Part shown: positions 8,072 to 58,905 of the stretch, piece after piece | Position numbering within the stretch: position 1 is the first letter of the stretch | Layout of the letters: each line of letters begins with the position of its first letter | IMG/VR virus record: IMGVR_UViG_3300034374_002231 | Span: 668 to 64,667 of that record | DNA from: a virus | Taxonomy: Duplodnaviria > Caudoviricetes | Reading direction: 5' to 3' (one strand) | Length of the DNA: 64,000 nt | Notes under the pieces: generated by a model | Database searches by the model: none | What the model was told of the DNA's origin: nothing | The model's input: only the letters and a program-made list of their open reading frames with translations | Position numbers and translations under genes: made by a program

Positions 8072-8080
8072 GCCGTCCCC

Positions 8081-40083: not shown

Positions 40084-40694
40084 TCTTCATCCCATGCGTT
40101 GTCGAGCGCCACCGAAGACATAGGCTCGACTTCGACCACCTCTGCATCCACGACGTCCTCTCCGACAAGTCGGGACAACTTCTGCCGCAGGGAATCCCGC
40201 AGCTCATCAGACGTACGATGCGTCACCGTAACCTCGCTACGCTCTGCAAACAGTCCGACATCGCTGACCTTACCAAGCAGTTCCAGTGCCTTGATCCGAA
40301 TACGAGGGTCAGGGTTGTCCGTCTCCTCCAGCAGCTTGTTCGTCACGTAGTTCCGCACCTGCTCGGCATCATCTACGATCCTATGGCTGAATTGCCGGAG
40401 TTGGTGGTCAATCGCACGCAGGGCTGAGGGTGTCATGGTACCTATCCGTCTCTCTGTCATGGCCTTTGTCGCCGCATCTGGGTCTCTTGCATAATCCATC
40501 AGCACCGAGCCTGCCGTTTCGCAGTCGTCCGAACCAAGGACGACCTTTAGTCCGTGAGTCGCCAGCAGCTCCACCGTTTTCGCAGCTGCGGCCATGTGTT
40601 CTGGCAGCGACTCCGTAGGTGGCGCGCTGCCATGCTTAAAGCTCAGCCCATCAGGCATCGGTACGTCTGACTCAGGCACAAGAGATAGTGTCAT
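40080..40694 (-). CDS. Terminase small subunit (probable)
   Basis: Directly upstream of terL; IRIKALELLGKVSDVGLFAERSEV; start either 40694 or 40703. Confidence 0.7.
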   Translation of the reverse strand: MTLSLVPESDVPMPDGLSFKHGSAPPTESLPEHMAAAAKTVELLATHGLKVVLGSDDCETAGSVLMDYARDPDAATKAMTERRIGTMTPSALRAIDHQLRQFSHRIVDDAEQVRNYVTNKLLEETDNPDPRIRIKALELLGKVSDVGLFAERSEVTVTHRTSDELRDSLRQKLSRLVGEDVVDAEVVEVEPMSSVALDNAWDEE

Positions 40695-41111
40695 GTGGTG
40701 CATGGTACCAACAAATATAGGGGTCTGACAATCCGGGACTCTTTATGCACGAAACAGGGGGTCGGCAGGGGGGTGGGGTGCTCCTTAATGCGCATGCGAT
40801 TGATACCCCCGGGGGAAGGTCGAATGGTCGGCTTGGACCGAATGTTCCGGTAATGTTCTGAAATGTGGTGTTGTGGGTGCGGAATAGCATTACTGCCGCA
40901 GCGGGCCGCCGCCTCGAAGCAGGGGGGATGCCCCCCGGTGGGGGTCCAGCCCCGGGGCGTTATACGTGCCGTATAACAGACCGTGACGCGATATTAAATG
41001 ACACGTTCCGAAACCAAACCGTGGCAAGGCATGGCAAAACGTGTCAGATATAGGTTATCGGAAGGGCAATCCCGCCTGACCGAAACCATGTCAACCGAGA
41101 AAGGACAAGAC

Positions 41112-41810
41112 ATGACAAACGCAACCGCAACCGCAACCGCCAAGGCAACCGCAACCGCCAAGGCAACCGCAACCGCCAAGGCACGCAAGCCGCGCGCTGC
41201 AAAGGCGCAAGCCGCCCCCGTCAATTTTTCCGTCAAAGATGCGGCGCTTGCCGCAACGGATGGGCTGAAAGCGCAAGGGCGGCTCGAAAGCGCGCAAGCT
41301 GCGCGCGACAAGGCCGCCCTTGCTTTCCGCGATATGGTCATCGCGGCAAGCCTGACCACGAACGATTTTCGTGGTGCGACAAAAGACAAGACGCGTGGTG
41401 AAGGCAAGCATTGTCAGGCCTTGCGGCAAGAGGTGGCCTTGTCTTGGTTGAACGCGGCCGAACGCAAGATTGTCGAAACGGCGAACGATAAGGCGAACGG
41501 TTCGCCTTATCACAAGGCCATGACCAAGGTCACGAACGCGGTCAATCGGTTCCTTGACCATGTGGATCGCGTGGCCAAGGCTGAGGCTGAGGCCAAGGCC
41601 AATGGCGGCAAGGGCAAGGGCAAGGCTAGCCCCGGCGGCCGCACAATCAAGGCCATGTCCGAGGTACTGACCGAGGGTTTCGGCACGATGCTGAAACGCC
41701 TTGGCAACGACAAGAGGTCGAAAAACCCCAGCGGGGCGAACCACGATACGGTCCGCAGGGTTTTGGAAAAGGCATTGAGAGATGCCTTGGCGGAAATGGC
41801 CAAGCAATAA
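41112..41810 (+). CDS. First early gene, Ala/Lys-rich protein
   Basis: RBS GAAAGGA before ATG at 41112; N-terminal TATAKA repeats (18-bp unit); followed by a terminator. Confidence 0.7.
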   Translation: MTNATATATAKATATAKATATAKARKPRAAKAQAAPVNFSVKDAALAATDGLKAQGRLESAQAARDKAALAFRDMVIAASLTTNDFRGATKDKTRGEGKHCQALRQEVALSWLNAAERKIVETANDKANGSPYHKAMTKVTNAVNRFLDHVDRVAKAEAEAKANGGKGKGKASPGGRTIKAMSEVLTEGFGTMLKRLGNDKRSKNPSGANHDTVRRVLEKALRDALAEMAKQ

Positions 41811-41814
41811 CACG

Positions 41815-41844
41815 AAGGGCGGCGCGAAAGCGCCGCCTTTTTTT
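41815..41844 (+). terminator. Rho-independent terminator
   Basis: GGCGGCGC-GAAA-GCGCCGCC then TTTTTTT. Confidence 0.9.
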
Positions 41845-42017
41845 GTGCCTTGCGTCCTGCGGGACGCTGCGTCACCAGTTACCCCAACAGCACGGGGCGC
41901 GTTATACGCACCGTATAACAGCACCGGGTCGACAGCGGTTCCGGCCCAGCGACACGTCTCCACGCGTCACCAGTTACCGCAGCAGCACAGGGCACGAGGT
42001 CGGACAGCACACGGCAT

Positions 42018-42157
42018 ACGAGGTTGTTATACGGGCCGTATAACACGTTCGGCCGCCGCATCACCAGTTTCCACAGCAGCACAGGGCACGAGGTTGTTAT
42101 ACGGGCCGTATAACACGTTCGGCCGCCGCATCACCAGTTTCCACAGCAGCACAGGGC
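42018..42157. repeat. Exact 70-bp direct tandem duplication containing the palindromic box
   Basis: 42018-42087 equals 42088-42157; degenerate partial units near 41870 and 41965. Confidence 0.9.
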
Positions 42158-42329
42158 GCGCTACACGCTAGGCGCGAAGCCGGGCGAAAAATTTACAACT
42201 TGTGGGGGGTGCGAGGATTACGCTCAGAGCATTGCGTCCACCACTGCGTGGTGTAGCTAACGCTACGTGTAGCGTAACCCAAATTGAGATTTTGTCAACC
42301 CCCTCGCTCACGGGTTGTAACAATTCTAC

Positions 42330-42995
42330 CCAGAGATTGTTCCACAAATATATCACAACGTGGATGCGTTATACGGCCCGTATAACACTGATTTCATGTA
42401 ATGTTCCAGTCTACAACCATACACCTATTGTTCCAAATGTTCCAGTCGCCTAAAAAGAGTGGAACAATATAACGCGTTGATAACAAAAGAAAAAACGGGT
42501 ATTGTTCCAATGTTCCATAAATTCGAGGAATAGTGACCTCGGCAACCGTTTTCGTCTGACCGAATGCACCGCACCGTCAAACACCCCCCAAATTTTTCCA
42601 ACCCGGTATATACTAAAAAATGTGGAACATTTGGAACATTTGGAACAATAGGCATCTACTACTACTACTAACTATAAATATATATATATATATCAGACAC
42701 TTACACCAACACACATGCAGGTTTGTATTGTTCCAATTCAAAATCTTGAATAGGAACATTTGGAACATTACCGAATATCAATGACTTAGCGTTTTCGGTC
42801 CCGCTGGACCGCACACCCTGCACCCTATGCTGCCAATCCCACACCGTTGTTATACGACCTGTATAACAGCTACCAATACTTACCAGAACCTCACATGATA
42901 TTCTCAAATGAAACATGAGATTCTCAAATGAAGCATATTGACTCAAATCGTATTATATCGTACTATACTACGTATAGTTTGTTTGTTCCCGGGTC
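42330..42995. other. AT-rich non-coding region with TGTTCC/GGAACA repeats (candidate origin)
   Basis: More than 10 copies of TGTTCC in both orientations, some with 9-bp period; (CTA)n and (TA)n runs at 42656-42693. Confidence 0.5.
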
Positions 42996-43518
42996 TTGTT
43001 GACCAACGCTCTTTGACATCGTGATTGGCTGCGCCTGACGCAGCCCGGCCTAGCTAGGTGTTATACGCCCCGTATAACACCGATGATGCAGAACCAACCG
43101 GCCATTGCCTGTGACGCGCGGCTACGAAAACACCGCAGCGTGGGCACGCTCCCACTTCCAGTGGGGGCGTTGCAGAAATCAAGAACCAGCAAGCCACTGT
43201 ATTGGCATCAAGGGAGACGGGAGTTCCCCCCTACAAAACTCGAAGCCCCACGCAGCTATCACACGCGACGGTACGTTGGCCTGTTATACTTCGCGACCCG
43301 CGATGCGGGTTATACGCCTCGTATAACGGCTCATGCCACTTCATACCTAGCCCAGCCTGCACCCGAGAATGGTGCGGAAGCTGCTGCCGGTTGGTTCGAC
43401 AAAACACATACGTCAGCATCCGCTGACGTGGGCGACAACAGCTAGGACACGCGGATGCCCGCGTGTCTCATGGTGCAGTCGCGCCACCACACCGAAACCA
43501 TTGAGAAAGGAACTACAG

Positions 43519-43728
43519 ATGAAATTGACACACATCCCCCTCGCAGTCCGCGCCACTGTTCTGGCGCATGCCCGCGACATGCGCAGTATCAGGGGCGATC
43601 AACAACCAGATCAGTGGCTGGACGCCCGCTATCGGGCCGCTGCTGATCTGGCGCATGACTTGCGCCGTCTGCACGGCATCCACGCGCCCCAGTGGGCGCG
43701 CGACCTGATCTTTCAGGTCGCAACATAA
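43519..43728 (+). CDS. Early hypothetical protein
   Basis: RBS GAAAGGA; MKLTHIPLAVRA..., 69 aa. Confidence 0.65.
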   Translation: MKLTHIPLAVRATVLAHARDMRSIRGDQQPDQWLDARYRAAADLAHDLRRLHGIHAPQWARDLIFQVAT

Positions 43729-43793
43729 CCACACCGAAACCATCGCAACACGCCCCGTTATACGGGGCATATAACAGTGAGAAAGGAAGTATC

Positions 43794-44225
43794 ATGCTCA
43801 GCACAACAACACAGAACCAGATCAATCAGGAATGGGAACGCAAGGCAGAAGCCTTTGCGTGGGAGGACAAGCACCCTGTCCACCCGACAACCGACGTGCG
43901 GAACGACGCGTTCCGCAACGCGATGAACGCAATCGGGCACAAAGCCCTGCCGTTCATGAATGCCAAGTATACATACGTCAGCGATCTGGCGTGGGATGCC
44001 GCTGCCTGTGCCGACCTGGAGAAGGGGGACACGCTGTTCCTCCTCATCCGCGAGTGCGGCACGTCCCTGTTCACGCCGATCACGCAGGAGCCAGATCACG
44101 TCCAGCGCAAGCTGGAGGAGGTCATCGAACACGTAGACGTGTGCAGCACCCGCAAGGCTGTACTGCGCGTGGTGCGTGAAGCCTATGACACCTTCACGGT
44201 GTCGGTCGTGTACAACCGCGTGTGA
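43794..44225 (+). CDS. Early hypothetical protein
   Basis: Palindromic box and RBS GAAAGGA before MLSTTTQNQ. Confidence 0.7.
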   Translation: MLSTTTQNQINQEWERKAEAFAWEDKHPVHPTTDVRNDAFRNAMNAIGHKALPFMNAKYTYVSDLAWDAAACADLEKGDTLFLLIRECGTSLFTPITQEPDHVQRKLEEVIEHVDVCSTRKAVLRVVREAYDTFTVSVVYNRV

Positions 44226-44282
44226 CGCGGACAACCAGCGCCCCGTTATACGGGGCGTATAACATGAGAAAGGAGACCAGCA

Positions 44283-44459
44283 ATGGCTGGAGAACTTATG
44301 ACATTTGCCGCCCTGCCACAGGGCGCGCCGTTTTTCTTCAACGGCAACCGCTGCATCAAGCGGTCGTCCAAGACGGCCGAACTCGTTGACTACAAGCGGA
44401 CGTTCTACTTCCGCAAAGACGACGTGATCGCCCTCGGCTGGCCGGGAGATGGCGAATGA
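44283..44459 (+). CDS. 58-aa early hypothetical protein
   Basis: Box and RBS AAGGAG; MAGELMTFAALPQGAPFFFNGNRCIKRS; ATGA overlap with the next gene. Confidence 0.7.
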   Translation: MAGELMTFAALPQGAPFFFNGNRCIKRSSKTAELVDYKRTFYFRKDDVIALGWPGDGE

Positions 44460-44659
44460 CGCAGAAACCCACGCCCAAGACGTGCGCGTGCTGTGGGGAG
44501 ATGACCCCGCCGCTGATGCAGTGGTTCAACCAAGACACAGGCTACGGCCTGTGCGAGCCGTGCGCTGACTGGATCGAACAGCGAAGCGGGGCCGACTATC
44601 TCGCCGAAACCTACGGGCAGCGCGGAGTGCATATTGCAGATAACAGGGAGCAGAGATGA
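44456..44659 (+). CDS. Small zinc-finger protein
   Basis: CACCG...QWFNQDTGYGLCEPC. Confidence 0.7.
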   Translation: MTQKPTPKTCACCGEMTPPLMQWFNQDTGYGLCEPCADWIEQRSGADYLAETYGQRGVHIADNREQR

Positions 44660-44868
44660 GAACTAACGTAGACCCACACTGTATAACGTGTGGTGACGAG
44701 TACCCTCACGCGCGCCGCGCGTTGGGGTACCAGACCTGCCTTGACTGTGGGCAGGAAGCCGCTGTGGCCATGCGCGCAGGGTGGTGCATCGTGCCGCTGC
44801 CCAAGCAGGGTTACACACGGGTCACCCGCAAAGACGAACTGCAACACCTCAACCAGAAGCCCCGCTGA
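44656..44868 (+). CDS. DksA/TraR-type C4 zinc-finger protein
   Basis: CITCGDEYPHARRALGYQTCLDC fits the CxxCG..I..R.....CxxC pattern. Confidence 0.7.
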   Translation: MRTNVDPHCITCGDEYPHARRALGYQTCLDCGQEAAVAMRAGWCIVPLPKQGYTRVTRKDELQHLNQKPR

Positions 44869-44906
44869 TGCGGGGTTATACACAGCGTATAACAAGGAGA
44901 ACGACA

Positions 44907-45806
44907 ATGACTTTTACTTTCGATAACGCACCGGCACCGCAGGGTGCCACTCTTCAGTCCTCGACCATGCTGGTCGAACTGAGTATCTCGGTCTGGACTG
45001 CGCGCAAGCTGGACAAGCGTGCGTCTGACGACGTGACAACGCAGAAACGTGCCGACAAGGGTATGGCCAACGTCCACAAGAAGCTGATTGCCTGTGACGA
45101 GTTGACCGCGATCCAGAAGTTCGCCGCGAACGCACGCACGTCGCACCACTATGCTATGACGCTGCCGTGGTCCGACAGCGGGCTGCGTATGCTGCCGACG
45201 TCGAAGTATTTCGGCTATCACAAGACCATGACCGGACTGCAAGCCGAGTTCGACAGGCTCGTGGAGAAGTTCTTGGCCCGGTACGAGTGGCTTATCAACG
45301 AGACCCAGATCAAGCTGGGCGACATGTATAACCCAGCCGAGTACCCGTCGCTTGACAGGATGCAGGCCAAGTTCGGCTTTCGCCTCAACTACATTCCCTT
45401 GCCCGAGGCGGGCGACTTCCGCGTGGACATTGGCAACCAGCAGGCTGCCGAGTTGCAGCAGCAGTATGCTTCGTTCTACGAAGCGCAGCTGACCCGGGCG
45501 ATGGGCAACCTGTGGTCCCGTACATACAAGACGCTGACCCACATGTCCGAGCGGCTGGACTACGCTGACCACGAACAGAAGAAGGTGTTCCATAACACGT
45601 TGGTGTCCAACGTGCTGGACCTGATCGACATGATGGAGACCATGAACATCACCAACGATCCGAACATGCAGCTGCAAAGCCGTCGCCTCAAGATGGCGAT
45701 GCAGGGTATCTCGCCGGACGCGTTGCGTGAGGACGAGGGTCTGCGCCGTGAGACCAAGCGGGCTGTGGACGAGGCCATCAAGGCCCTGCCGTCGCTCGAC
45801 TTCTAA
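44907..45806 (+). CDS. DUF3150-like phage protein
   Basis: Box and RBS AAGGAG; MLVELSISVWTARKLD...TLPWSDSGLRMLP...YNPAEYPS. Confidence 0.65.
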   Translation: MTFTFDNAPAPQGATLQSSTMLVELSISVWTARKLDKRASDDVTTQKRADKGMANVHKKLIACDELTAIQKFAANARTSHHYAMTLPWSDSGLRMLPTSKYFGYHKTMTGLQAEFDRLVEKFLARYEWLINETQIKLGDMYNPAEYPSLDRMQAKFGFRLNYIPLPEAGDFRVDIGNQQAAELQQQYASFYEAQLTRAMGNLWSRTYKTLTHMSERLDYADHEQKKVFHNTLVSNVLDLIDMMETMNITNDPNMQLQSRRLKMAMQGISPDALREDEGLRRETKRAVDEAIKALPSLDF

Positions 45807-45878
45807 TACAATACGTCAACCAGCGGGGCGTTATACGCCCCGTATAACAAATCAAATCAAACCAAACGGAGAACTACC

Positions 45879-46967
45879 ATGACTAACACTATGTATCACC
45901 TCGGTCTGGACCAGACCGCAAACCTCATCAAGATCATTGGCCACAAGCGCACCGTGCTGGCGCAGGGTCACATGGGTACCGGCAAGTCCTCGCTGCTCAA
46001 GATGCTGGCCGAGATGCTGCCGACGCACACCCCCGTGTACTTCGACTGCACGACCAAGGACTTGGGTGACCTCATGTTGCCACGCATCGCCGAGGTGGAC
46101 ACAGAGACACCGTACGTCAGCTACGCACCGAACGAGGAGTTGGGTATCCACCACAACACCCCCGTGATCGTCATGCTTGACGAGTATGGCAAGGCTAACG
46201 CCGCTGTGAAGCAGGGCCTGACCGCCTTCATGCTGGAGCGCCGGTTGGGTAACAACGTGCTGCACCCTGACAGCATCGTGTTCTGCACCACCAACCTCGG
46301 GGCCGAGGGCGTGGGCGACTTGCTTGTGGCACACCAGCGCAACCGCATCATCCCTGTCACGGTACGCAAGCCTAGCAACGTGGACTGGATCGAGTGGGGC
46401 ATCAACAACGGGATCGACCACAGCCTGTTGGGCTGGTGCCGTGACAACCCGCAGCTGTTCGCTGACTTCACCGAGATCAAAGATCCGGACGAGAACCCTT
46501 ACATCTTCCATCCTCGTGCGCAGCGTGCTGCCTTCGTCACACCTCGTTCGCTCGAAACTGCGTCTGACATTCTCAAGACGCGTGAGTTCCTTGACGACCA
46601 GACGGTGGTGGCTGGCTTGATCGGTGCCATCGGTGATCGTGCGGCGATGGACTTGATGGCCTTCGTCAAGCTGGCTGACCAGCTGCCCAGCTTGCAGTCT
46701 ATCAAGGACGACCCGAAGAACGCTATCGTGCCGACCAGCGCCGCAGCTGTGTGTATGGTGGTGTATCGTACCATGGCAGCGCTCGAACGTGACTGGCTCG
46801 ACGCGTGGATGGACTACATGGTGCGGCTGCCGAAAGAGGCGCAGGGTATGTTTGCCAACGGTGTCCGCACCCCGAAGTATTCCAAGCAGCCCATGGTGAT
46901 GACCAACACCAAGTTCACCAACTGGGCCATGCAGAACAGCTATCTCTACGCAGCTGACATCAAGTGA
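45879..46967 (+). CDS. AAA+ ATPase (MoxR/AAA_5-like)
   Basis: Walker A GHMGTGKS, Walker B VMLDE, TTN, NR, TPRS. Confidence 0.88.
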   Translation: MTNTMYHLGLDQTANLIKIIGHKRTVLAQGHMGTGKSSLLKMLAEMLPTHTPVYFDCTTKDLGDLMLPRIAEVDTETPYVSYAPNEELGIHHNTPVIVMLDEYGKANAAVKQGLTAFMLERRLGNNVLHPDSIVFCTTNLGAEGVGDLLVAHQRNRIIPVTVRKPSNVDWIEWGINNGIDHSLLGWCRDNPQLFADFTEIKDPDENPYIFHPRAQRAAFVTPRSLETASDILKTREFLDDQTVVAGLIGAIGDRAAMDLMAFVKLADQLPSLQSIKDDPKNAIVPTSAAAVCMVVYRTMAALERDWLDAWMDYMVRLPKEAQGMFANGVRTPKYSKQPMVMTNTKFTNWAMQNSYLYAADIK

Positions 46968-46974
46968 GGGACAC

Positions 46975-47130
46975 ATGTCGACCGATGACCTGAAAACGGC
47001 CCAGCTTATTCTGGACCTCAAGGAAATGCTTCGCGTCTACGTAGACGGGAAGGATCACAACGAAACTCGTGGCCAAGCCTTGGCCACGATACGCGAAGCA
47101 AACGCATGGCTATATGGAGAGGACAAATGA
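46975..47130 (+). CDS. 51-aa hypothetical protein
   Basis: RBS GAGG; MSTDDLKTAQLILDLKEMLR; ATGA overlap with the next gene. Confidence 0.6.
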   Translation: MSTDDLKTAQLILDLKEMLRVYVDGKDHNETRGQALATIREANAWLYGEDK

Positions 47131-47420
47131 AACCGTACCAGAAGAAGTACAAGCCCAAAGAGGGCAAGCGGAACACGCTTTGGACTGAAGAAGACCGCGA
47201 CCTGCTGCGCACACTGGCTGCGCAAGGTGTGCCGCATTGGGACATTGGCAAGCGTCTCGACCGCTCGCCCGGTTCGATCAGCCAGCAGCTGTACCTGATG
47301 CGTAAGCAAGATGAGGCGGAACGCTTCATCGACGCAGTGATGGAGGACTACCACGAGGTGGAGGTCACGCCGAAACCGTCGCTGTGGCGGCGCATCATGA
47401 ACATTATACGACGCGTATAA
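47127..47420 (+). CDS. GcrA-like helix-turn-helix protein
   Basis: WTEEDRDLLRTLAAQGVPHWDIGKRLDRSPGSI resembles the GcrA N-terminal domain. Confidence 0.6.
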   Translation: MKPYQKKYKPKEGKRNTLWTEEDRDLLRTLAAQGVPHWDIGKRLDRSPGSISQQLYLMRKQDEAERFIDAVMEDYHEVEVTPKPSLWRRIMNIIRRV

Positions 47421-47436
47421 CAGACAGGAGAACAAC

Positions 47437-48651
47437 ATGTTTATGGGTAAGTTGACACCCGAGCAACGGGTGCAGAAAGCCGTGATCGACATCATGGCCA
47501 AGGATCGCTACGCCGCACTGGCTGGCATTCTGATGATCGGCGAGAAGCGTGTGGAGTATGACGCTGACAAGTGTCCGACCGCGTACACCGACGGTAAGAA
47601 CGTGGTGTTCGGTGCTGACTTCATGGACGGCATGACCGACGCAGAGTTGCGGTTCCTCGCTATCCACGAGGAGAAGCACAAGATGTATCGCCACCTGACA
47701 ACGTGGGAGTGGATGTGGAAGGAGGACAAGCAGCTTGCCAACCAAGCGTGCGACCACGTCATCAACATTGAGACAGTGGACGAGAACCCTGACGGCTTCG
47801 CCACTATGACAGGCAAGCTGGCCGAGGGTTGCTGTGACTTCAAGTACCGTGGGTGGGATGCTGCACAGGTATTCCATGACCTCAAGCGCAAGCGTGACGA
47901 GCAGGGCGGCAGCAGTGGTGACGGTGATGGTGACTACGACGGCAGCTTCGACCAGCATGGCTGGGAAGAAGCGCAGGACATGACCGCCGAGGAGAAGCGC
48001 GAATTGTCCCGTGCCGTGGACGAGGCCATACGTCAGGGTGTCTTGCTTGCAGGTAAGACCGGGTCCGGTGGCGACCGCAGCTTCGAGGAACTGCTGACAC
48101 CGCAGGTCAACTGGCGTGACGCGCTGCGTGAGTTTGTACAGAACACATGCGCTGGGTCTGACTACTCAACGTGGCGCAAGCCCAACCGTCGGTACGTCGG
48201 GATGAACATCTACATGCCCTCCGGTGTCAGCGAGACAGTGGGCGAGATGGCCGTGCTGATCGACACGTCAGGGTCTACCTACGCACCGGGTGTGCTGCCC
48301 GCCTTCATGTCCGAGGCCAAGGCCATAGCCGAGACTGTCCGACCGGAGCGGGTGCACATCATCTACTGGGACACCTCGGTGTGTCAGGCTGAGGTGTACG
48401 AGCAGGACGAGTTGGACAAGATGATCTCCAGCACGCAGCCCAAGGGCGGTGGAGGCACCGACATTACCTGTGCCATCGACTACATGGCCGAGCATAACAT
48501 CAAGCCGCAAGCATCCATCGTACTGACTGATGGTTATCTGTTCGGTGGCTGGGGATCGTGGTCACACCCTGTGATGTGGTGCGTGATCGACAACAAGAAC
48601 GCCAAGCCCGACACGGGCAAGGTCGTACACATTCGTGCGAGTGACATGTGA
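47437..48651 (+). CDS. Metallopeptidase-VWA protein (DUF2201-like)
   Basis: PTAYTDG, HEEKH, ACDHVIN, WRKPNRR, MIDAS DTSGS, GGGGTD, LTDG. Confidence 0.85.
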   Translation: MFMGKLTPEQRVQKAVIDIMAKDRYAALAGILMIGEKRVEYDADKCPTAYTDGKNVVFGADFMDGMTDAELRFLAIHEEKHKMYRHLTTWEWMWKEDKQLANQACDHVINIETVDENPDGFATMTGKLAEGCCDFKYRGWDAAQVFHDLKRKRDEQGGSSGDGDGDYDGSFDQHGWEEAQDMTAEEKRELSRAVDEAIRQGVLLAGKTGSGGDRSFEELLTPQVNWRDALREFVQNTCAGSDYSTWRKPNRRYVGMNIYMPSGVSETVGEMAVLIDTSGSTYAPGVLPAFMSEAKAIAETVRPERVHIIYWDTSVCQAEVYEQDELDKMISSTQPKGGGGTDITCAIDYMAEHNIKPQASIVLTDGYLFGGWGSWSHPVMWCVIDNKNAKPDTGKVVHIRASDM

Positions 48652-48700
48652 TACCAACCACGCCTCGTTATACGGGGCGTATAACACAAGGAGATGAGCA

Positions 48701-49732
48701 ATGGCTCGTTACTACAAAGCAATCAACAGTTTCGCCGACATTGAAACTGCCTATAACCTAACCCTCCCTCTGCGTGGCGCGAAGAACAAGGACAAAGACA
48801 TCCGTCCCATTGGCGACCGCAAGCGCAAGTGGGAGCGCATCGTCAAGGTAAGCAACAACTGCTACGCCCTGACTAACGGATGGCACCCGGGCGAACCGGA
48901 TTACTGGATGCGTGATAGCGCGGTTGATGGTGAGCCTCCTATCAGCTGGATGGCCAAGTATTCGCCCATCGTCTGGCGTAGGCATAAAGATGGAACCGAG
49001 ACCGTCACCCTGCGTAACGGTACAGGCTCCCGTCAGCACAATAGCGTGTATGATTTCCTGCAGCGCCACGTCCCGAGATATATGTTTTTCCGACAGACGA
49101 ACGTCGGACACCAGTATATCAGCGTGCATGGCACTGACTACTACTTGGCGAAGGGTCGCACCATACCGAAGCAATACGCTGCTCGCGCGTTGAAGTACGA
49201 CTCGGAGCGTGTGTGGTACCAGACCACTGACGACAACGCGTCTCTGACCTTCAAGGTGTTGGACGGCCGCTATGAATTTGTTGGCGAGGCGCTGACGGTA
49301 CCGAAGCCGCCCAAGAAGCGCGTAGATAAGGCCCGCAAGGCAGCCCTCAAGCCGCACATCGACGCGTTCCGTGACTGGGCTATAGCTATCCTGCCCATGA
49401 TGCCTTCTGACTGGAAGTCCGAGAACGAGGTGCTGAACCAAGCCCGCACCGTACCTATCGGTGCCTTCCGTCTTGGGTACTCTGTTGGGTGGGCCTTCAA
49501 TACCTACAACTCAAAACTAGCAGAGCAAATTATACAGCACGACCAGCACGCGCTTCGCGTTTTGTTGGCGCTTGACATGCGTGCGGTGGTTCGTTCTGCG
49601 CTTGAGACTGAGCACGGGAGCGGCACGAACTACACACACCTGCACCTGAATGCCGGGTTCCAGACCGCCTATAACCGCTGGGTCAACAGGGTACTCGGAC
49701 TTATCAACGAAGTACAAGGAGATGCGAAATGA
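48701..49732 (+). CDS. Hypothetical protein
   Basis: 343-aa ORF; box and RBS AAGGAG upstream. Confidence 0.75.
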   Translation: MARYYKAINSFADIETAYNLTLPLRGAKNKDKDIRPIGDRKRKWERIVKVSNNCYALTNGWHPGEPDYWMRDSAVDGEPPISWMAKYSPIVWRRHKDGTETVTLRNGTGSRQHNSVYDFLQRHVPRYMFFRQTNVGHQYISVHGTDYYLAKGRTIPKQYAARALKYDSERVWYQTTDDNASLTFKVLDGRYEFVGEALTVPKPPKKRVDKARKAALKPHIDAFRDWAIAILPMMPSDWKSENEVLNQARTVPIGAFRLGYSVGWAFNTYNSKLAEQIIQHDQHALRVLLALDMRAVVRSALETEHGSGTNYTHLHLNAGFQTAYNRWVNRVLGLINEVQGDAK

Positions 49733-50589
49733 ACGCAGAATGGATGGAAGTAGACGACCTCAAGCCAGTGAGTGATAACACGCACCCAAACCTGTTGGCC
49801 TTTATGCGTGGCGTTCAGGCCAAGATACCCGGCATACAGTTCGGGCAGCGCGGTCCTTCGGCAACCAGTGCAGTGTTTGCGTACCTGCCCGGAGAACACG
49901 TGACTATGGGCCGTATTGGCTACGGCGATTTCAAGGTCCGAGGTAAGGGCACCGCCGAATACATCGTGGAGTCCGACTATATTAATAATTGCAAGTACAG
50001 CAGCTCCAGTAGGCAGCATCACATGGCGATGACTAAGGACCGCGAAAAAGCGGTGACGAACGCACAGAAGTTCTTGCGTCGGATGCCTACTCCTGTAGTT
50101 GCGCTCCGTTTGTTTGCTGGGGCAAACGCGTTTGTGCACGATAGAGCATCCAAACTCCGGGACGCAGCTGCAAAGGCCGAGTCGAAGGTGTTTACGACGT
50201 CGCTCTCTAGATACGGTTCAGGTGCCGTACGCATACGACTGCTGGCTGAAATGCAACGCCTTATAGATACAGATCACATCTTCAGCGATCCATCGTTTGG
50301 TACGGATCTTGCCGCTATGCTTACTGCACGTGCCGAGTATGACGCGCTTAAAGACGGCGTGGAGTTTACATTCGTGGGCGTCAAAGACACGCCGTTCGGT
50401 CAGCAGATAGAAGTAATAGATTTGGATAAGTACGGATGTGACGGAAGTGATGTACGCATCTTCACCGAAGCTGATATGCCTACTGACCTCGCAGGTAAAG
50501 TGGCCGTACTGTCCATGCTTCAGCCTCGCGAATACGTCGATGGTGTAGGCTGCCGTCGTACAGAGCGGGTGTTCTATGTCGTACGGTGA
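49729..50589 (+). CDS. Hypothetical protein
   Basis: 286 aa; C-terminal MPTDLAGKVAVLSML..VDGVG..FYV. Confidence 0.75.
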   Translation: MNAEWMEVDDLKPVSDNTHPNLLAFMRGVQAKIPGIQFGQRGPSATSAVFAYLPGEHVTMGRIGYGDFKVRGKGTAEYIVESDYINNCKYSSSSRQHHMAMTKDREKAVTNAQKFLRRMPTPVVALRLFAGANAFVHDRASKLRDAAAKAESKVFTTSLSRYGSGAVRIRLLAEMQRLIDTDHIFSDPSFGTDLAAMLTARAEYDALKDGVEFTFVGVKDTPFGQQIEVIDLDKYGCDGSDVRIFTEADMPTDLAGKVAVLSMLQPREYVDGVGCRRTERVFYVVR

Positions 50590-50821
50590 GTTGTCATATC
50601 GCGTGGAATATCTGCCTGACAACGAGCATGTCAAAGTACTATGTTTTACGTCGAAACAACTTGCATTGATACCGGATGGTACGTATCGTATAGATACCCT
50701 CCCGCAAATTCTGCGCGACAAATTGGCTGTTCTAGCCATACTGGAGACCCCACCTCCGCCGGTTGATGTGGCGGGAGTGGGCCAGCGCGTAGGAGAGCGA
50801 GCGTTCTGGGTGTACCTCTAA
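50576..50821 (+). CDS. Hypothetical protein resembling the C-terminus of the previous gene product
   Basis: LPQILRDKLAVLAIL..VAGVGQR..FWV. Confidence 0.7.
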   Translation: MSYGELSYRVEYLPDNEHVKVLCFTSKQLALIPDGTYRIDTLPQILRDKLAVLAILETPPPPVDVAGVGQRVGERAFWVYL

Positions 50822-50880
50822 CAACGTACGAGGCGTGTTATACGCCTCGTATAACATCACCAGTTACATGGAGACGACGA

Positions 50881-51231
50881 ATGGGAATGACGCCCGAAGC
50901 AAAGATCAAGAAGGTTGTCGCACAGCAACTCAAGGACATGGGTGCGTACTACTTTTATCCAGTGACAGGGGGGTACGGGGGCAGCGGAGTGCCCGACATT
51001 GTTGGATGCTACAACGGTAGATTTTTTGGCATCGAATGCAAAGCCGGGAACAATAAGCCAACCGCACTGCAACAGAAAAACATCGACTCCATCTTAGCCG
51101 CAGGTGGCCTGTCATGGGTCGCCAATGAGAAAAACATGCGTATGACCGAAGAAATTTTACTCGCAGCAGAAGAAGTCCTACGCGAAGACGAAAGGATCGC
51201 ATCTGAAAATAACCGAACCATGGGGGACTAA
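50881..51231 (+). CDS. VRR-NUC domain nuclease
   Basis: TPEAKIKKVV..GGYGGSGVPDIVGC..FFGIECKAG..PTALQ. Confidence 0.88.
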   Translation: MGMTPEAKIKKVVAQQLKDMGAYYFYPVTGGYGGSGVPDIVGCYNGRFFGIECKAGNNKPTALQQKNIDSILAAGGLSWVANEKNMRMTEEILLAAEEVLREDERIASENNRTMGD

Positions 51232-51325
51232 CCTACGGGAGTTCCTACTCATCATGTTCCAACACGACATCGTGTGGAAACCAAACAAACCCGGCGATAC
51301 GCCACCCTTTTAAAGGACTAAAACA

Positions 51326-51967
51326 ATGGCTGATACAGCATATGAAGCGATAACGATCACTAACGAAATACACACAGGTGCAGCTTTCGGTATTCAACAT
51401 GGCACCGGACGCAGCTGCTATATCCCAGCAACCGTTATGTATTCTAGTGGCTCCCGCCCCGGAGACGTCGTGCAAGCGGTTCTGATAGACAACCCGAGCA
51501 ACGACCCCGACATCCGGAACCGCACGCCGTATTTGGTACGGTTCATCAAGCCCATGGTAACCCCGACACAGCTCGAACTGCCACTGGAACAGCCCTCGCA
51601 GCTGGCGCAAGAGATCGTCGCAAAGCTGGGCGGCGCCGCCCCGACCCCGGCCCCGGCCCCGGCTCCGGTACCTACGATAAAGGAGCGTGCGGCAAAGCAC
51701 GTCGAGGCGACCATGATGGCCGGTGGGGTGTGGAGATTTGCGACTATGTTTGAGGATTTCATGGCGGCCGAGGGTAAACCCGGAGCAGCACGCTCGGATC
51801 ACATGGAGGAGTATTGGGCAGTGGCGCATGTTATGCGTCGTTTGTTTGAGACTGATCGCTGCGCGAAATGGGTTCTTTACAATCGAGCCTCAAACACCAA
51901 AGCCTCAAGAGAGTGGTATAGCTGCCGCCCTGAAACCATCGACGTAGCGGAGTTCGACGATGAGTAA
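51326..51967 (+). CDS. Hypothetical protein
   Basis: 213 aa; RBS AAGGA; PAPAPAP linker. Confidence 0.7.
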   Translation: MADTAYEAITITNEIHTGAAFGIQHGTGRSCYIPATVMYSSGSRPGDVVQAVLIDNPSNDPDIRNRTPYLVRFIKPMVTPTQLELPLEQPSQLAQEIVAKLGGAAPTPAPAPAPVPTIKERAAKHVEATMMAGGVWRFATMFEDFMAAEGKPGAARSDHMEEYWAVAHVMRRLFETDRCAKWVLYNRASNTKASREWYSCRPETIDVAEFDDE

Positions 51968-52448
51968 GCCGTTAACAGTCAACGAACAGCACGTATGGGC
52001 ATACCTCCTGCAACACCGAAACGCCCGGGCCTTTGAAGTGGCCGAGGCTGTTGGCGTGAGTGAGGCGCTCGTTGCGGCCATGATGGACCGCATTTCCTCT
52101 GACAACTGGCGGGAGGAGGTAACCCCTCCCGCTACCAGCGGCGTCAAGTATGACAGTGACAAGCTGCCGATGCACCTCTTGCCACCTGAACTGCTGGAAG
52201 GCACCGCTGCGGTGCTGGCCTTCGGTGCTCGCAAATACACTCCCCGCAACTGGGAACTCGGCATGGAGTGGCACCGACCCTACTCTGCCCTGATGCGTCA
52301 TATGTTGGCGTGGTGGGGTGGAGAGGATCTCGACCCGGAGACTGGGCTGTCACACACATGGCATGCGGCATGCTGCATCGCGTTCTTGATGGCCTACGAA
52401 CAACGCAAGATCGGAACAGACGACCGACCGAGGGAGCACACCGCATGA
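51960..52448 (+). CDS. HTH fused to a dATP/dGTP diphosphohydrolase domain (DUF5664-like)
   Basis: GVKYDSDK..LLP..VLAFGARKY..RNW..ALMRH..GEDLDPETGLSH..HAACC. Confidence 0.85.
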   Translation: MSKPLTVNEQHVWAYLLQHRNARAFEVAEAVGVSEALVAAMMDRISSDNWREEVTPPATSGVKYDSDKLPMHLLPPELLEGTAAVLAFGARKYTPRNWELGMEWHRPYSALMRHMLAWWGGEDLDPETGLSHTWHAACCIAFLMAYEQRKIGTDDRPREHTA

Positions 52449-52825
52449 GGACCATTCACTTTAACCTTATCAGACGCCGCCGCTGGCGCGAATGTGCGGA
52501 GGCTCTGGAGGCCCACGGCAACGCGACCGATGCGGCAACGGCGCTGGGGTGGAAACGACAGCAGGTCTACGACGTGATCCACCGAATGAAGAAAGCCGGG
52601 ATCATTGAGCAGACAGCGCCCTACACATGCAGCTACGCCTCGTCGCAGCAGCGCGCGGGCACTATGCGGGCTGGCCGTATCTTGGAAGCAGCACAGGCAT
52701 ACGACCGAGACTTCCAGCGGTGGTTGGTAGGACAGATACCAGAGGGCGGCACGTTGGCAGAGTTGCTCATGGCCATGGCGTTTGACGCTTACATTGAAGA
52801 AGAAAGCCAGAAGGAGGCAGCGTGA
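52445..52825 (+). CDS. HTH-containing hypothetical protein
   Basis: GNATDAATALGWKRQQVYDVIHRMK; ATGA coupling. Confidence 0.65.
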   Translation: MRTIHFNLIRRRRWRECAEALEAHGNATDAATALGWKRQQVYDVIHRMKKAGIIEQTAPYTCSYASSQQRAGTMRAGRILEAAQAYDRDFQRWLVGQIPEGGTLAELLMAMAFDAYIEEESQKEAA

Positions 52826-53025
52826 TGGGTAAGTATTACACAACACTGTCCGACATGCACAGGGTAGAAGCTAACCACCTGCGGGACAAGCTGCGGATCG
52901 CTATGGCGGCGCTGGATGTAATCATCCGCTTTGGAAACGAAACGTACCCCGACCCCGAGCGGGCTGTTACCGACATGAAGGTGGTAGCGGAGAGAGCGCT
53001 TGAAAGGATCGAAGGCGATGAGTGA
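52822..53025 (+). CDS. Hypothetical protein
   Basis: 67 aa; RBS AAGGAGG; coupled. Confidence 0.65.
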   Translation: MMGKYYTTLSDMHRVEANHLRDKLRIAMAALDVIIRFGNETYPDPERAVTDMKVVAERALERIEGDE

Positions 53026-53272
53026 GGTTGCAAGGATCGGCCCCGCCGATGACGGGGTGCAGCGGTTTTACCGGCTGTATGCGCGGCGCAAGTCTGATTT
53101 CGTGGTTGCCGAGCATGACTTTTGCTGCCGCACACTTGGTGGTGCGGTCGCGGAACATAAAGCCAGAAAGCATGCAGAGTGGTTGATGAACACCAAGCCT
53201 GCGTACGATCAGGTCCGCATCACCCTGCACGTTGTCCATCCAATCATGGAGAAGGGGTTTGAAGATGAGTGA
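53018..53272 (+). CDS. Hypothetical protein
   Basis: MSEVARIGPADDG...; overlaps the upstream stop. Confidence 0.6.
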   Translation: MSEVARIGPADDGVQRFYRLYARRKSDFVVAEHDFCCRTLGGAVAEHKARKHAEWLMNTKPAYDQVRITLHVVHPIMEKGFEDE

Positions 53273-53753
53273 CGATCTGGTGAAGCGGGCAAGGCATAAT
53301 GCTCTGTCTGACATGCCCCATTATGCAAGCGTTGAACTCATTGAAGCGTTAGCCGACCGCATCGAGGAGTTGGAGCGGGAGCGGGTTCTATCAAAGGCGG
53401 CGTATGATGGTGTGTCGTCGCTGCTTTTGAGTGTCCAGCAGGACTGCATCAAGGAACACAACCGCGCCGAAGCCGCAGAGGCCGCGCTGAAAGAGGCGAT
53501 TGAAAAAGAGCTGGATGCAATCAGCACTCTGGACGCTTGGTTCGACCGAAGGGAACTTGGTCACGCCGCCGTGGATCAGGCAGTTGTTGACGCCGCTTCA
53601 GGGTATCTCAGAACATCAAGATGCGGAGGAATGCCTCAAGAGGAAAGTGACCTGATCCTTGGCGTGATGCAGAACATGGCTAGGCTTGGACTGTTTGCCG
53701 ACCTGTTTGCCCGCGCCTACCCCGCCGAACTGAAAGGGGAGGGTCGGGGATGA
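53265..53753 (+). CDS. Modular-array gene 1
   Basis: MSDDLVKR...ADRIEELE...AEAAEAAL...AELKGE. Confidence 0.75.
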   Translation: MSDDLVKRARHNALSDMPHYASVELIEALADRIEELERERVLSKAAYDGVSSLLLSVQQDCIKEHNRAEAAEAALKEAIEKELDAISTLDAWFDRRELGHAAVDQAVVDAASGYLRTSRCGGMPQEESDLILGVMQNMARLGLFADLFARAYPAELKGEGRG

Positions 53754-54124
53754 GTGACGATCTGGTGAAGCGGCTGCGTGAAGATCGACCCGTGACACAG
53801 GATATGGCAAGCACGATGCAATGCGCCCTGCAAGACGCAGCAGCCGACCGCATCGAAGAACTGGAGGATAAGCTGAACTGGGTCATCGTAGAACGAGATG
53901 AGACATTTGCTTTGATGCTGGATCGTGCACAAACAGCGGAAGCCAAGCTGGCAAAGAATGAAGCCCTGATGCAAGCAGGCTTTGCGGAATACGAACACAG
54001 GCTGGCGAAGGCGGTGGAGGCTTTGGAGAAACTGGCACGGCTGGGTAACGGCGACCTTTACGGCAACAGCGATGGCAACATGATTGCCCGCACCACCCTC
54101 GCAGAACTGAAAGGAGATAAGTGA
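53750..54124 (+). CDS. Modular-array gene 2
   Basis: MSDDLVKRLR...AADRIEELEDKL...AEAKLAK...ARTTLAELKGDK. Confidence 0.8.
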   Translation: MSDDLVKRLREDRPVTQDMASTMQCALQDAAADRIEELEDKLNWVIVERDETFALMLDRAQTAEAKLAKNEALMQAGFAEYEHRLAKAVEALEKLARLGNGDLYGNSDGNMIARTTLAELKGDK

Positions 54125-54585
54125 TGACTAAGCCAGACTGGGAAAACTTCGCCAAGGCTGTGCTGACAGACTGGCCAACTGGTGATCTGGACGGCTCTGT
54201 TCTGTTCGACTTGTCGCTGCAATACGGCATGATCCAAGAGGTGCCGGGTGGGTATAACTCTGACCACCATATCGACGCAGACTGTATCTGCCCGGAAGAA
54301 GGCGATCCTTGGTATGAATACACCTTCCGAGGCGAGGCTGGGCCGGGGCTGTATTCCATTTCCAACATGACCAAGCGCATCCAAGAATTGCATGACGAGA
54401 ACGCACGGCTTCGTGATGCCGTTTACATTGATGACTTGACTGTAACCTTGCAGGGGAAAGACAGAGCCGTTGCGATTGCAGGAATGGAGCGGGCTTTAGA
54501 CTTAATCAATGCAGACCTAACGCAAGAAGCAAAAGTGGCTCTGCGCACCACCCTCGCAGAACTGAAAGGAGAGAAGGATGAGTGA
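54121..54585 (+). CDS. Modular-array gene 3
   Basis: Unique acidic N-terminal domain, KRIQEL, ends RTTLAELKGEKDE. Confidence 0.75.
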   Translation: MMTKPDWENFAKAVLTDWPTGDLDGSVLFDLSLQYGMIQEVPGGYNSDHHIDADCICPEEGDPWYEYTFRGEAGPGLYSISNMTKRIQELHDENARLRDAVYIDDLTVTLQGKDRAVAIAGMERALDLINADLTQEAKVALRTTLAELKGEKDE

Positions 54586-54808
54586 CGATCTGGTGAAGGC
54601 AGCGGTGCTGGCACAAAACACAATAGAAGCGATCTATCAATGGGTCGATAAGGTCGAAAAGGCTGGCGGCACAACTTCAATCGAAGGGATTGCCGTTGCC
54701 CATGCAATGTTCAAAAGCCTTCAAAGCAACAGAAGTAGACTTGATAAGCTAATAACACAGCCGCTGGAGAAAGCCCTCGCAGAACTGAAAGGAGAGAAGG
54801 ATGAGTGA
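54578..54808 (+). CDS. Modular-array gene 4
   Basis: MSDDLVK...ALAELKGEKDE. Confidence 0.75.
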   Translation: MSDDLVKAAVLAQNTIEAIYQWVDKVEKAGGTTSIEGIAVAHAMFKSLQSNRSRLDKLITQPLEKALAELKGEKDE

Positions 54809-55157
54809 CGATCTAGAAGTGCTTGGGTCAGACGGTATTAGACGTACATATGATGAGCACTACGACACCATGATGGATGTAGAACAAGACCCAACTGGTG
54901 CTTGGCAGGCCATACATAACCAACACGACCGCATCGAGGAACTTGAGGACAAGCTGGATTGGGTTATCACGGAACGGGACGAGACTTTTGCTTTGATGCT
55001 GGATCGTGTGCAAACAGCAGAGGCCAAGCTGGCGAAGGCGGTGGAGGCTTTAGAGAAGCTGGCACGGCTTGGCAATGGCGACCGTTATGGCAACAGCGAC
55101 GGCAACACGATAGCCCGCACCACCCTCGCAGAACTGAAAGGAGAGAAAGATGAGTGA
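54801..55157 (+). CDS. Modular-array gene 5
   Basis: MSDDLE...DRIEELEDKL...AEAKLAKAVEAL...ARTTLAELKGEKDE. Confidence 0.8.
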   Translation: MSDDLEVLGSDGIRRTYDEHYDTMMDVEQDPTGAWQAIHNQHDRIEELEDKLDWVITERDETFALMLDRVQTAEAKLAKAVEALEKLARLGNGDRYGNSDGNTIARTTLAELKGEKDE

Positions 55158-55539
55158 AGATCTAGTGAAGCGGCTGCGAACATCTTGGGATGCTGACCGC
55201 AGTATAATTTCACAGACTGACAACTGGATGAGGGAACGGCAAGAAGCAGCCGACCGCATCGAGAAATTAGAGGCCGAACTGCACCTGATGAAAACATCAG
55301 GTATCGCAGAGGTGGCCGCGCGAAACCCAAGCGTCATGGAATACATGCGGCATTGGGAAGGAAGAGCAGAAGCAGCAGAGGACAAGCTGGCGAAGGCGGT
55401 GGAGCTGGTCAATACAGCGTTTAATGAAGGCTTTGGCGAGGGAATGAATGACGTGATGCGCCGCCGTGGTGGAAAGTCTTGGTATGAAAGCAGATCTCGC
55501 AAGCGCATCGCAGAACTGAAAGGAGGCCCCGATGCCTGA
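55150..55539 (+). CDS. Modular-array gene 6
   Basis: MSEDLVKRLR...AADRIEKLE...AEDKLAKAVE...IAELKGG. Confidence 0.8.
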   Translation: MSEDLVKRLRTSWDADRSIISQTDNWMRERQEAADRIEKLEAELHLMKTSGIAEVAARNPSVMEYMRHWEGRAEAAEDKLAKAVELVNTAFNEGFGEGMNDVMRRRGGKSWYESRSRKRIAELKGGPDA

Positions 55540-56058: not shown

Positions 56059-56104
56059 GCGCTGATACTACCACAAAATATAACACCGACAAAGGAGAAC
56101 AACG

Positions 56105-57934: not shown

Positions 57935-57935
57935 C

Positions 57936-58604: not shown

Positions 58605-58607
58605 CGC

Positions 58608-58877: not shown

Positions 58878-58905
58878 TTATACGGGCCGTATAACGGAGA
58901 ACCAC

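Follow-up and report, generated by a model that had tools for sequence, protein, structure and literature searches.

Why do the bases in front of a palindromic DNA box match the variable spacer at its centre? The question is raised by the tailed phage (Caudoviricetes) record IMGVR_UViG_3300034374_002231 of IMG/VR, which is 64,667 base pairs (bp) long and rated complete and of which we analyzed positions 668 to 64,667 (64,000 nucleotides [nt], hereafter the window, covering nearly all of the record; coordinates are window positions on the + strand unless another strand is given). A sequence-only reading of this stretch had noticed that the upstream flank of several boxes pairs with the box spacer and had proposed a bistable switch beside ribosome-binding sites, or the footprint of template switching. 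We found that flank and spacer do co-vary, and we trace this to selection for an intra-strand hairpin located where the upstream gene ends.

The box was searched for with the pattern TTATACNNNNNGTATAA, allowing at most 2 mismatches and using 100 shuffles as the null. The window had 16 matches to GTTATACG-NNN-CGTATAAC, compared with 0.46 expected and a largest shuffle count of 3, and the whole 64,667-bp record had the same 16 boxes, with 0 in the backwards control. All 16 were located at 40959-58895, in the early/replication arm, and no box was found in the 40-kb late arm. Eight boxes lay within the mostly non-coding region at 40.9-43.3 kb, and the other 8 had a Shine-Dalgarno sequence and a start codon 10-30 nt downstream. 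The box is a 19-bp palindrome with constrained arms, a half-site spacing that was constant in 16/16 window copies, and 3 central bases that are free inside a G...C frame.

Covariation of flank and spacer

All 5 hairpins quoted by the sequence-only reading were present at the positions it had given. We refer to the flank hairpin as H1, to the box hairpin as H2, and to the predicted box-hairpin occupancy as P(H2). The first H1, GCCCCGT-tat-ACGGGGC (43752-43768), starts 23 nt past the stop codon at 43726-43728 and reaches into box copy 9 (43757-43775; spacer GGG, with A instead of G at position 13 in the right arm); its predicted free energy (dG) was -13.5 kcal/mol in a 38-nt context and -14 in the intergenic fold, with P(H2)=0.00. 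The second, CGCCCCGT-tat-ACGGGGCG (44239-44257; dG -17.7 to -17.9), starts 13 nt past the stop codon at 44223-44225 and involves box copy 10 (44245-44263; spacer GGG), and the third, CGGGGCGT-tat-ACGCCCCG (45824-45842; dG -17.4 to -17.7, z=-3.9), starts 17 nt past the stop codon at 45804-45806 and involves box copy 12 (45830-45848; spacer CCC), upstream of the ATPase gene at 45879-46967. These 2 hairpins differ by 3 adjacent G-C pairs that are flipped within otherwise near-identical 36-nt units. The fourth, ACGCCTCGT-tat-ACGGGGCGT (48660-48680; dG -13.9), includes one U.G pair, starts 8 nt past the stop codon at 48649-48651, and involves box copy 14 (48667-48685; spacer GGG). The fifth, TACGAGGCGT-gttat-ACGCCTCGTA (50827-50851; dG -18.5 to -21.3), is in a shifted register with 10 bp and a 5-nt loop, starts 5 nt past the stop codon at 50819-50821, and involves box copy 15 (50837-50855; spacer CCT), with CACCAGTT next at 50858. 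In the common register, the left-arm TAT forms the loop, G1-T2 pair with A6-C7, and flank positions -1 to -6 pair with G8, the 3 spacer bases, C12, and G13.

Flank-spacer pairing was thus a minority feature, identified in 5/16 window boxes, and the weaker versions that the sequence-only reading had listed beside these 5 held up only in part. Box copy 2 (41901-41919; spacer CAC) had a near-H1 with 6 Watson-Crick pairs and one C.A mismatch. At box copy 8 (43309-43327; spacer CCT), the adjoining hairpin (43296-43310) was an independent one with no spacer pairing. Box copy 1 (40959-40977; spacer TGC), which precedes the first early gene (40998-41810), had 4 contiguous flank pairs beside the adjoining palindrome GCCCCGGGGC, and box copy 16 (58877-58895; spacer GGC), which is overlapped by the upstream stop codon and precedes the SNF2 helicase gene, showed no more than a weak GGCC/GGCC stem in a shifted register (P(H2)=0.39).

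We extended the comparison to relatives by scanning a viral contig collection with the ATPase, which yielded 275 relatives, of which 80 loci were kept. For the fixed-register test, 44 distinct W-type boxes from 7 genomes were aligned without gaps and compared with 500 shuffles and 7 slid registers. In this alignment, 71.6% of cells were paired, compared with 64.4 +/- 1.4 in shuffles (0/500), and the covariation score was 0.213, compared with 0.135 +/- 0.015 (0/500), the best of the seven registers. The 3 variable pairs occurred as C-G/G-C with counts of 15/9, 11/13, and 12/9, and 15-19 of the 44 copies were unpaired at these positions. In the spacer-swap test, the 5-nt centre was exchanged among boxes and the sequences were refolded, both for W-type boxes (n=43, z=-6.5) and for a TTATGC-N5-GCATAA set from five genomes (n=54, z=-7.8), with 0/500 shuffles reaching the observed energy in each. 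The flank therefore changes to match the spacer in a way that keeps intra-strand pairing, as had been proposed, and a plain double-stranded operator does not account for complementarity at otherwise freely varying positions. An earlier, smaller spacer-swap test gave z=-3.9, weaker values in the GTTAGTG lineages (z=-3.5 and -3.1), and no signal in lineages with a constant centre. A strict count of contiguous stems in the first, smaller set was weaker and only suggestive (8/20, compared with a null mean of 4.1 and maximum of 8).

Related copies inflate these pairing figures. Copy relatedness cannot be the whole explanation, however, because at least 17 different stem sequences were identified across the two box types. 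The covariation also survived when relatedness was controlled: after an over-strict de-duplication to 28 flank groups, in which unrelated copies were lumped too, 38/84 variable positions were Watson-Crick paired, compared with 27.8 +/- 3.9 (P=0.007). Changes at 3 orthologous sites, in relatives with 97% ATPase identity, included no disruptive in-stem change. The site at 50827 and its counterpart L002:8836 differ by A-T to G-C (TACGAGGCGT/ACGCCTCGTA vs TACGGGGCGT/ACGCCCCGTA), the sites at 48660 and L002:6663 by U.G to C-G, and the sites at 43752 and L001:5893 by C-G to U.G, the stem letters reading CGCCTC vs CGCCCC opposite GGGGCG, and CGCCCC vs CGCTCC. These 3 changes gave the impression that wobbles favour the + strand, which failed in the wider count given below. 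Contigs from runs X1, X14, X17, and X18 showed no box differences among the rows listed, but contigs drop rare variants and so carry no information on spacer inversion.

Hairpins at the ends of upstream genes

A stem was counted when at least 6 Watson-Crick pairs covered the box centre. Upstream-flank stems were identified at 20/43 W-type and 17/54 TTATGC-type boxes (37/97 in total), compared with downstream-flank stems at 1/43 and 2/54 (3/97 in total). Hairpins were present at 10/15 W-type and 9/12 TTATGC-type boxes located 9-70 nt past the stop codon of a + frame of at least 60 codons, at 2/10 and 1/14 boxes where the stop codon abutted or overlapped the box, and at 3/18 and 1/28 boxes with no long frame ending nearby. 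With the two types combined, 19/27 boxes at 9-70 nt past a stop codon had the hairpin, compared with 7/70 others (odds ratio 21, p=1e-8), and among boxes whose non-coding flank followed no gene it was present in 4/46. The hairpin thus tracks the end of the upstream gene and not the box, and the proximity of ribosome-binding sites, which the sequence-only reading had taken as the organizing principle, does not explain its distribution. The gap from stop codon to hairpin (median, about 8 nt; range, -11 to 23 nt) was at most 10 nt in 16/22 junction sites; the five window sites had 7-10-bp GC-rich stems 5-23 nt past stop codons. GC hairpins lacking a U tract were also identified past stop codons where no box is present. 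One of these, GGACACGCGG-atgc-CCGCGTGTCT (43445-43468), with 10 pairs, the outermost G-U, and a dG of -27.3 in a 45-nt window, is located at the stop codon at 43443-43445, and the other, GGGGCG-ttcg-CGCCCC (62006-62021), lies 10 nt past the stop codon at 61994-61996.

These counts bear on a neutral origin, in which template switching during replication of quasi-palindromes extends GT-TAT-AC and copies the spacer complement into the flank, or the reverse. The left arm is indeed self-complementary (GT..AC), the base before the box is C, able to pair with G8, in 28/44 W-type copies, and a single template switch would yield a compensatory double change such as that between 50827 and L002:8836; the 3 adjacent pairs flipped between 44239 and 45824 in near-identical units are in line with the same process. 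On the other side, pairing was rare without an upstream gene and common past gene ends, a contrast not expected of a neutral process, and the mirror extension on the right arm (GT-ATA-AC) was nearly absent, with the 3/97 downstream stems. Stem registers vary, and so do loops (3, 4, 5, 8, and 11-12 nt), so there is no one seed palindrome. Because the pairing is one-sided and rare where no gene precedes, the neutral account fits poorly, and we regard it as improbable; template switching may still be the mutational route by which the compensating changes arose.

Folding of the RNA at the five window sites gave dG values of -13.5 to -18.5 kcal/mol for the flank hairpin, compared with -6.0 (or -0.9) for the box hairpin, so that the flank hairpin was about 8-12 kcal/mol stabler at all five. 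P(H2) was 0.00 at these sites and 0.17 to 1.00 at the other eleven boxes. In folds of the whole intergenic regions, the flank hairpin was the minimum-energy structure (z=-2.3 to -3.9) and the ribosome-binding site stayed single-stranded, apart from part of the GGAG in a weak local stem at 50838. The flank hairpin also forms ahead of the box hairpin during transcription. The two hairpins are mutually exclusive in topology, as had been claimed; they are not bistable, as had been proposed, because the flank hairpin dominates energetically and the stabilities are not comparable. One conformer of a bistable switch should hide a terminator or ribosome-binding site, and here the ribosome-binding site was unpaired in both states.

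A ribosome might, however, act as the trigger of a switch. Since H1 starts a median of about 8 nt past the stop codon, a terminating ribosome would melt its 5' arm, and the box hairpin could then form and be bound by an RNA-binding regulator or cut by a nuclease of the phage, which would link control of each gene to translation of the preceding one. The three-segment layout that such a switch needs (flank, left arm plus spacer, and right arm) is real, and the frequent gaps of at most 10 nt agree with it. Spacers of 3 and 4 nt in one genome of related lineages fit a hairpin loop better than a dimer site, and in the relative L007 a strong sigma-70-like match (TTGACA-17-TATTCT) stands about 54 nt upstream of a box, which is therefore part of a transcribed leader. 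The predicted ribosome-free occupancy of the box hairpin is 0.00, however, 6/22 gaps exceed 10 nt and fall outside the cover of a terminating ribosome, and neither conformer touches the ribosome-binding site. In addition, all 7-8 box-stem pairs are invariant, a pattern common in sites read as B-DNA and seldom seen in RNA stems, and single mismatches in the box stem showed no preference for G.U (26) over A.C (31) and no strand signal. We consider a translation-coupled switch unlikely. Slightly less likely again is its full form, in which the three segments sense translation, a lineage-specific RNA-binding regulator or nuclease recognizes the box hairpin, and each early gene is controlled by the translation of its upstream neighbour; if true, the same box code, with lineage-specific sequences, would extend across hundreds of uncultured aquatic podoviruses.

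The position of the hairpins directly past stop codons, their GC-rich stems of 7-10 bp, and their loops of 3-5 nt also resemble a true but weak terminator or attenuator between cistrons, with the A/T-rich arm of the box as its tail. In relatives, canonical terminators with a hairpin and T-run do run into the box TGTTA (L006:7148, L007:7726, L026:7684, and L029:3851). The tail in the window, TATAACA, has 2 U in 8, compared with a criterion of about 5 of 8, and the five sites were unreported in the terminator scan. A canonical intrinsic terminator, GGCGGCGC-gaaa-GCGCCGCC followed by T7, is present after the first early gene (41818-41845) and provides a host-type reference in the same genome, from which the host appears to use U tracts. 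Because the flank hairpins lack a U tract and were not flagged, termination by them is doubtful.

We propose instead that two separate signals may overlap at these gene junctions. The 19-bp box would be a sequence-specific recognition site of the phage early/middle gene programme, and the upstream transcript would end in a GC-rich hairpin where the junction leaves a few non-coding bases. The flank would provide the 5' arm of this hairpin, and its 3' arm would be drawn from the inner end of the box left arm and the free spacer because the intergenic gap is only 15-30 nt, with the self-complementary GT..AC of the left arm helping. Selection for such a hairpin would make flank and spacer co-vary. 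The hairpin would most likely act on RNA, either blocking decay in the 3'-to-5' direction or serving as a weak attenuator that sets off the upstream cistron; malEFG and puf are examples of intercistronic stabilizer hairpins. We hold a role at the message end, in stability or attenuation, tentatively and with somewhat less than even confidence.

Several points weigh against this proposal. We infer the RNA level at which the hairpin acts, and the stabilizer role is suggested by analogy; the U tract is absent, and the terminator scan flagged none of the five sites. Wobbles within the flank stems carry no strand signal (internal G.U vs A.C, 5 vs 10 and 8 vs 11). Across 271 boxes of all lineages, hairpins were not in general enriched within the 32 nt upstream (mean difference from shuffles -0.28 kcal/mol, not significant), which ruled out the simple rule that a hairpin always precedes the box. 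Nor were hairpins after stop codons more frequent than in mid-gene windows genome-wide (13 vs 12 on the + arm); with most genes overlapping their downstream neighbour, a rule that hairpins follow all stop codons fails. The flank hairpin is essentially limited to two box types, with 8/86 boxes in the commonest lineage; in other lineages, where it is rare, the box usually abuts the stop codon. Further, in the GTTAGTG lineages, 3- and 4-nt spacers coexist in one genome (6 and 4 in L006; 202 N3 vs 34 N4 overall), which speaks against a double-stranded dimer site, and protein-family and fold searches found no box-binding protein.

If the proposal is right, two signals share bases in a very short gap, and the free spacer of a protein-recognition palindrome is reused as a hairpin arm. 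Packing two signals in this way would be tidy and fairly ordinary, and the resulting covariation could be mistaken for a riboswitch-like element. It would also give an annotation rule for a large uncultured phage group (the 275 relatives), in which boxes show where early/middle genes start and flank hairpins where genes truly end.

Probable recognition of the box by sequence

The arms of W-type boxes were invariant across 44 copies from 7 genomes, with 97.4% of cells paired and 0 compensatory changes, and the right arm was conserved even where the flank hairpin precludes the box hairpin (P(H2)=0.00). Because the arms are invariant and the right arm is kept where it is unable to pair, we argue that the box is read by sequence and not via its own RNA hairpin, most simply as double-stranded DNA. 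The reader is most likely a phage-encoded protein that binds double-stranded DNA. In a promoter scan for -35/-10 hexamers with 16-18 bp spacing, 0 of 10 sigma-70-like matches coincided with a box, and an Rfam scan of 40500-51500 with E up to 1 gave no family match at the boxes.

PHROGs and Pfam scans of 44 open reading frames (ORFs) identified no RNA polymerase, sigma factor, or clear helix-turn-helix. The ORF at 47106-47420 had a sub-threshold match to HTH_38 (E=5e-4). An 81-amino-acid (aa) protein (50576-50821, +) is conserved and fast-evolving, with homologues in 59/80 loci and the consensus YRV...LP.W.Q.KLAVL...PPT..V.GVGRRI...YWV; a paralogous copy of this domain forms the C-terminus of the neighbouring 286-aa protein (49729-50589, +). 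Its AlphaFold model was confident (pLDDT 87.9) and had no fold match in PDB with E up to 0.001. In many relatives, the stop codon of this protein lies inside the next box (..TGT TAG).

We also weighed a signal in single-stranded or cruciform DNA, such as a hairpin promoter of the phage N4 virion-polymerase type or a replication or recombination signal. N4 early promoters have a short stem and a 3-nt loop, which the 7-10-bp stems and the 3-nt loop (4/5 sites) resemble; the ATPase and VWA genes are nearest to those of N4-like phages (about 25% identity), and no wobble preference for the RNA-sense strand was found. Against this, no RNA polymerase family was identified in any scanned ORF, the central loop base differs between box types (TAT vs TTA), and the sites are tied to gene ends and not to gene starts without an upstream gene. 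A 2485-aa protein was considered as a virion RNA polymerase and rejected, with only PLxRFG/DarB-like relatives and no PDB match. Such a DNA signal is in our view very improbable.

The same box as in the window was present in only 5/80 loci, and 72/80 loci had their own recurring, lineage-specific palindrome that shares the outer GTTA..TAAC. These variants included GTTAGTG-N3-CACTAAC (the commonest), GTTAGTC-N4-GACTAAC, GTTAGGG-N4-CCCTAAC, TTTACGGAATTCCGTAAA, GTTATGC-N4-GCATAAC, and TTATGC-N5-GCATAA. Among 272 de-duplicated boxes, 126 were followed within 60 nt by a start codon with its Shine-Dalgarno sequence, compared with 394/2000 random positions and 27/272 boxes in the opposite direction. 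One relative, L024, harbors two box types, TTAGTCCACGGACTAA and TTATGCCACGGCATAA, in one genome. At the orthologous position in front of the ATPase gene, the box of L024 is of another type than that of L025, with the two arms altered in concert; this exchange points to two specificities or to box conversion.

A (C)ACCAGTT motif was located 2-18 nt downstream of boxes in the window (41873, 41968, 42062, 42132, and 50858). The form CACCAGTT had 8 exact window copies, compared with 2.35 expected, 5 of them near boxes. The combination of box and ACCAGTT was kept across lineages with different boxes (L006, L007, L011, L019, L023, L024, L026, L029, L035, L055, and L130), and in relatives canonical terminators separate box-ACCAGTT units, as would be expected if these formed short early transcription units. 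One locus, L082, is the cultured Rhizobium phage RHph_TM3_14A (MN988472.1), which has the same early-gene order. It carries GTTACC-N6-GGTAAC 12 times in 42 kb and 8 copies of TTACCT-N4-AGGTAA. About 5 of its palindrome copies sit well inside long genes (polymerase, helicase, and primase-like), so this palindrome cannot be a leader element only.

In full-text searches of the open-access literature, we came across no account of pairing between flank and spacer at palindromic boxes of phages. As multi-copy phage operators, the conserved inverted repeats of phiC31 bear a likeness to the boxes. Cluster O mycobacteriophages have a 17-bp palindromic repeat, 5'-TGTTCGGNNNCCGAACA, with 34 copies in Corndog (PMC4351075). 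Like the box, it has 7-bp inverted repeats with invariant arms, a 3-bp variable centre, and tens of copies per genome, and even in its outer TGTT..AACA it is close to the variant most common in our set, TGTTAGTG-NNN-CACTAACA (PMC4351075). Its copies occur genome-wide, 10/34 of them well inside genes and with no meaningful orientation reported, whereas the boxes here are limited to the early arm, in front of genes; the portion of that source available to us describes no flank-spacer pairing (PMC4351075). In the PeSL, composite terminator/promoter motifs of T4-like phages, a stem-loop that closes one gene is likewise joined to a conserved signal for expressing its successor; the motif recurs between small early genes, and its stem sequence differs among phage lineages (PMC4122927). 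There, according to the accessible part of the source, stem-loop and host sigma-70 early promoter stand side by side (PMC4122927), whereas the hairpin here is interleaved with a palindromic box without a sigma-70 promoter match.

The start-associated sequences (SAS) and extended SAS (ESAS) of Cluster K mycobacteriophages are also conserved just upstream of start codons in a subset of genes, about half with inverted repeats and a variable spacer and with a consensus that differs between subclusters (PMC3203893). In contrast to the box, SAS is a 13-bp asymmetric motif overlapping the ribosome-binding site, and ESAS repeats span 17 bp, are imperfect, and have 4-13-bp spacers; the available text reports no spacer-flank covariation (PMC3203893). 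L5 stoperators resemble the boxes as many copies of a short protein-binding site in short early-gene intergenic gaps, and differ in being asymmetric and bound by a temperate-phage repressor (PMC3203893); no repressor or integrase was identified in this phage. REP elements, as described in the part of the source consulted, are GC-rich stem-loops between cistrons that lack a U tract and protect the upstream message segment (PMC3184786). Hairpins of the REP type are free-standing, whereas the flank hairpin takes half of its stem from the spacer of a different signal.

Remaining boxes and neighbouring genes

Box copies 3 (42026-42044) and 4 (42096-42114), both with spacer GGC and without a flank hairpin, are units 1 and 2 of a 70-bp tandem duplication at 42012-42160, the two boxes at 42026 and 42096 being identical. 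Public contigs break at this duplication, with pieces that end at 42047 and restart at 42088 or 42128. Also without a flank hairpin were box copy 5 (42368-42386; spacer GCC), in the AT-rich non-coding early region, box copy 6 (42849-42867; spacer ACC), in which the right arm begins with T and gives a G-T pair in the box stem, box copy 7 (43060-43078; spacer CCC), about 94 nt 3' of a sigma-70-like promoter match at 42938-42966, and box copy 13 (47403-47421; first base A, spacer ACG), which overlaps the end of the ORF at 47106-47420. Box copy 11 (44875-44893; 5-nt spacer ACAGC) had no spacer pairing and is adjoined by an independent GC hairpin, CCCCGC-tgat-GCGGGG (44860-44875), with the stop codon TGA of the upstream gene in its loop.

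The stretch at 42337-42768, about 430 bp, AT-rich and gene-poor, had 13 copies of (A/T)TGTTCCA on both strands and adjoins a (TA)n run and TAC repeats near 42655-42700. A similar cluster is present in L007 at 7830-8100 (aatgttccaaatgttcgc and ggaacattagaacatt). These copies have the appearance of origin iterons or of an array for a regulator.

The structural genes, including terminase, portal, tail fibre, and the 2485-aa protein, are on the - strand at 0.6-40.7 kb. From about 41 kb, the + strand encodes early/replication genes, including DUF3150, a MoxR-like ATPase, a DUF2201/VWA protein, a family-A DNA polymerase, a PD-(D/E)XK nuclease, an SNF2 helicase, and a DUF927 primase-like protein. Megablast against GenBank found no phage close at the DNA level. 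The best likeness of the ATPase and VWA genes was to N4-like phages, the terminase matched pelagiphages at 46-48% identity, and the polymerase matched Rhizobium phage RHph_TM3_14A at 36%, with the same gene order in that phage. In HTVC027P, with a terminase 46% identical, the layout differs and no recurring palindrome was found. DNA of the phage was present in freshwater metagenome runs, and no RNA run was among those listed for it.

In the 2485-aa virion-type protein (614-8071, -), an HExxH motif (LLHEMIHAA) lies where the sequence shows weak similarity to a protein of a crAss-like phage; its C-terminal quarter (about 600 residues) is PLxRFG/DarB-like, as in ejection proteins, and its first 1800 or so residues matched no family. 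The sole Rfam match across the window was the Mu-gpT-DE RNA motif in the structural arm (30574-30626, -), with 67.1 bits compared with a gathering score of 49. At 40998-41810 (+), the first early gene encodes 270 aa beginning with a repeated T-A-T-A-K-A peptide (41100-41190; tandem DNA repeat aaccgcaaccgccaaggc); the remainder is Lys/Ala-rich and helical-looking, with no family found and a detectable homologue in 1/80 loci. Two small neighbouring zinc-ribbon proteins of the CxxC...CxxC type are encoded at 44456-44868 (+). The second had a sub-threshold match to the DksA/TraR zinc finger (E=0.004) and homologues in 24/80 loci, and, judged from its sequence, it could be a modifier of host RNA polymerase.

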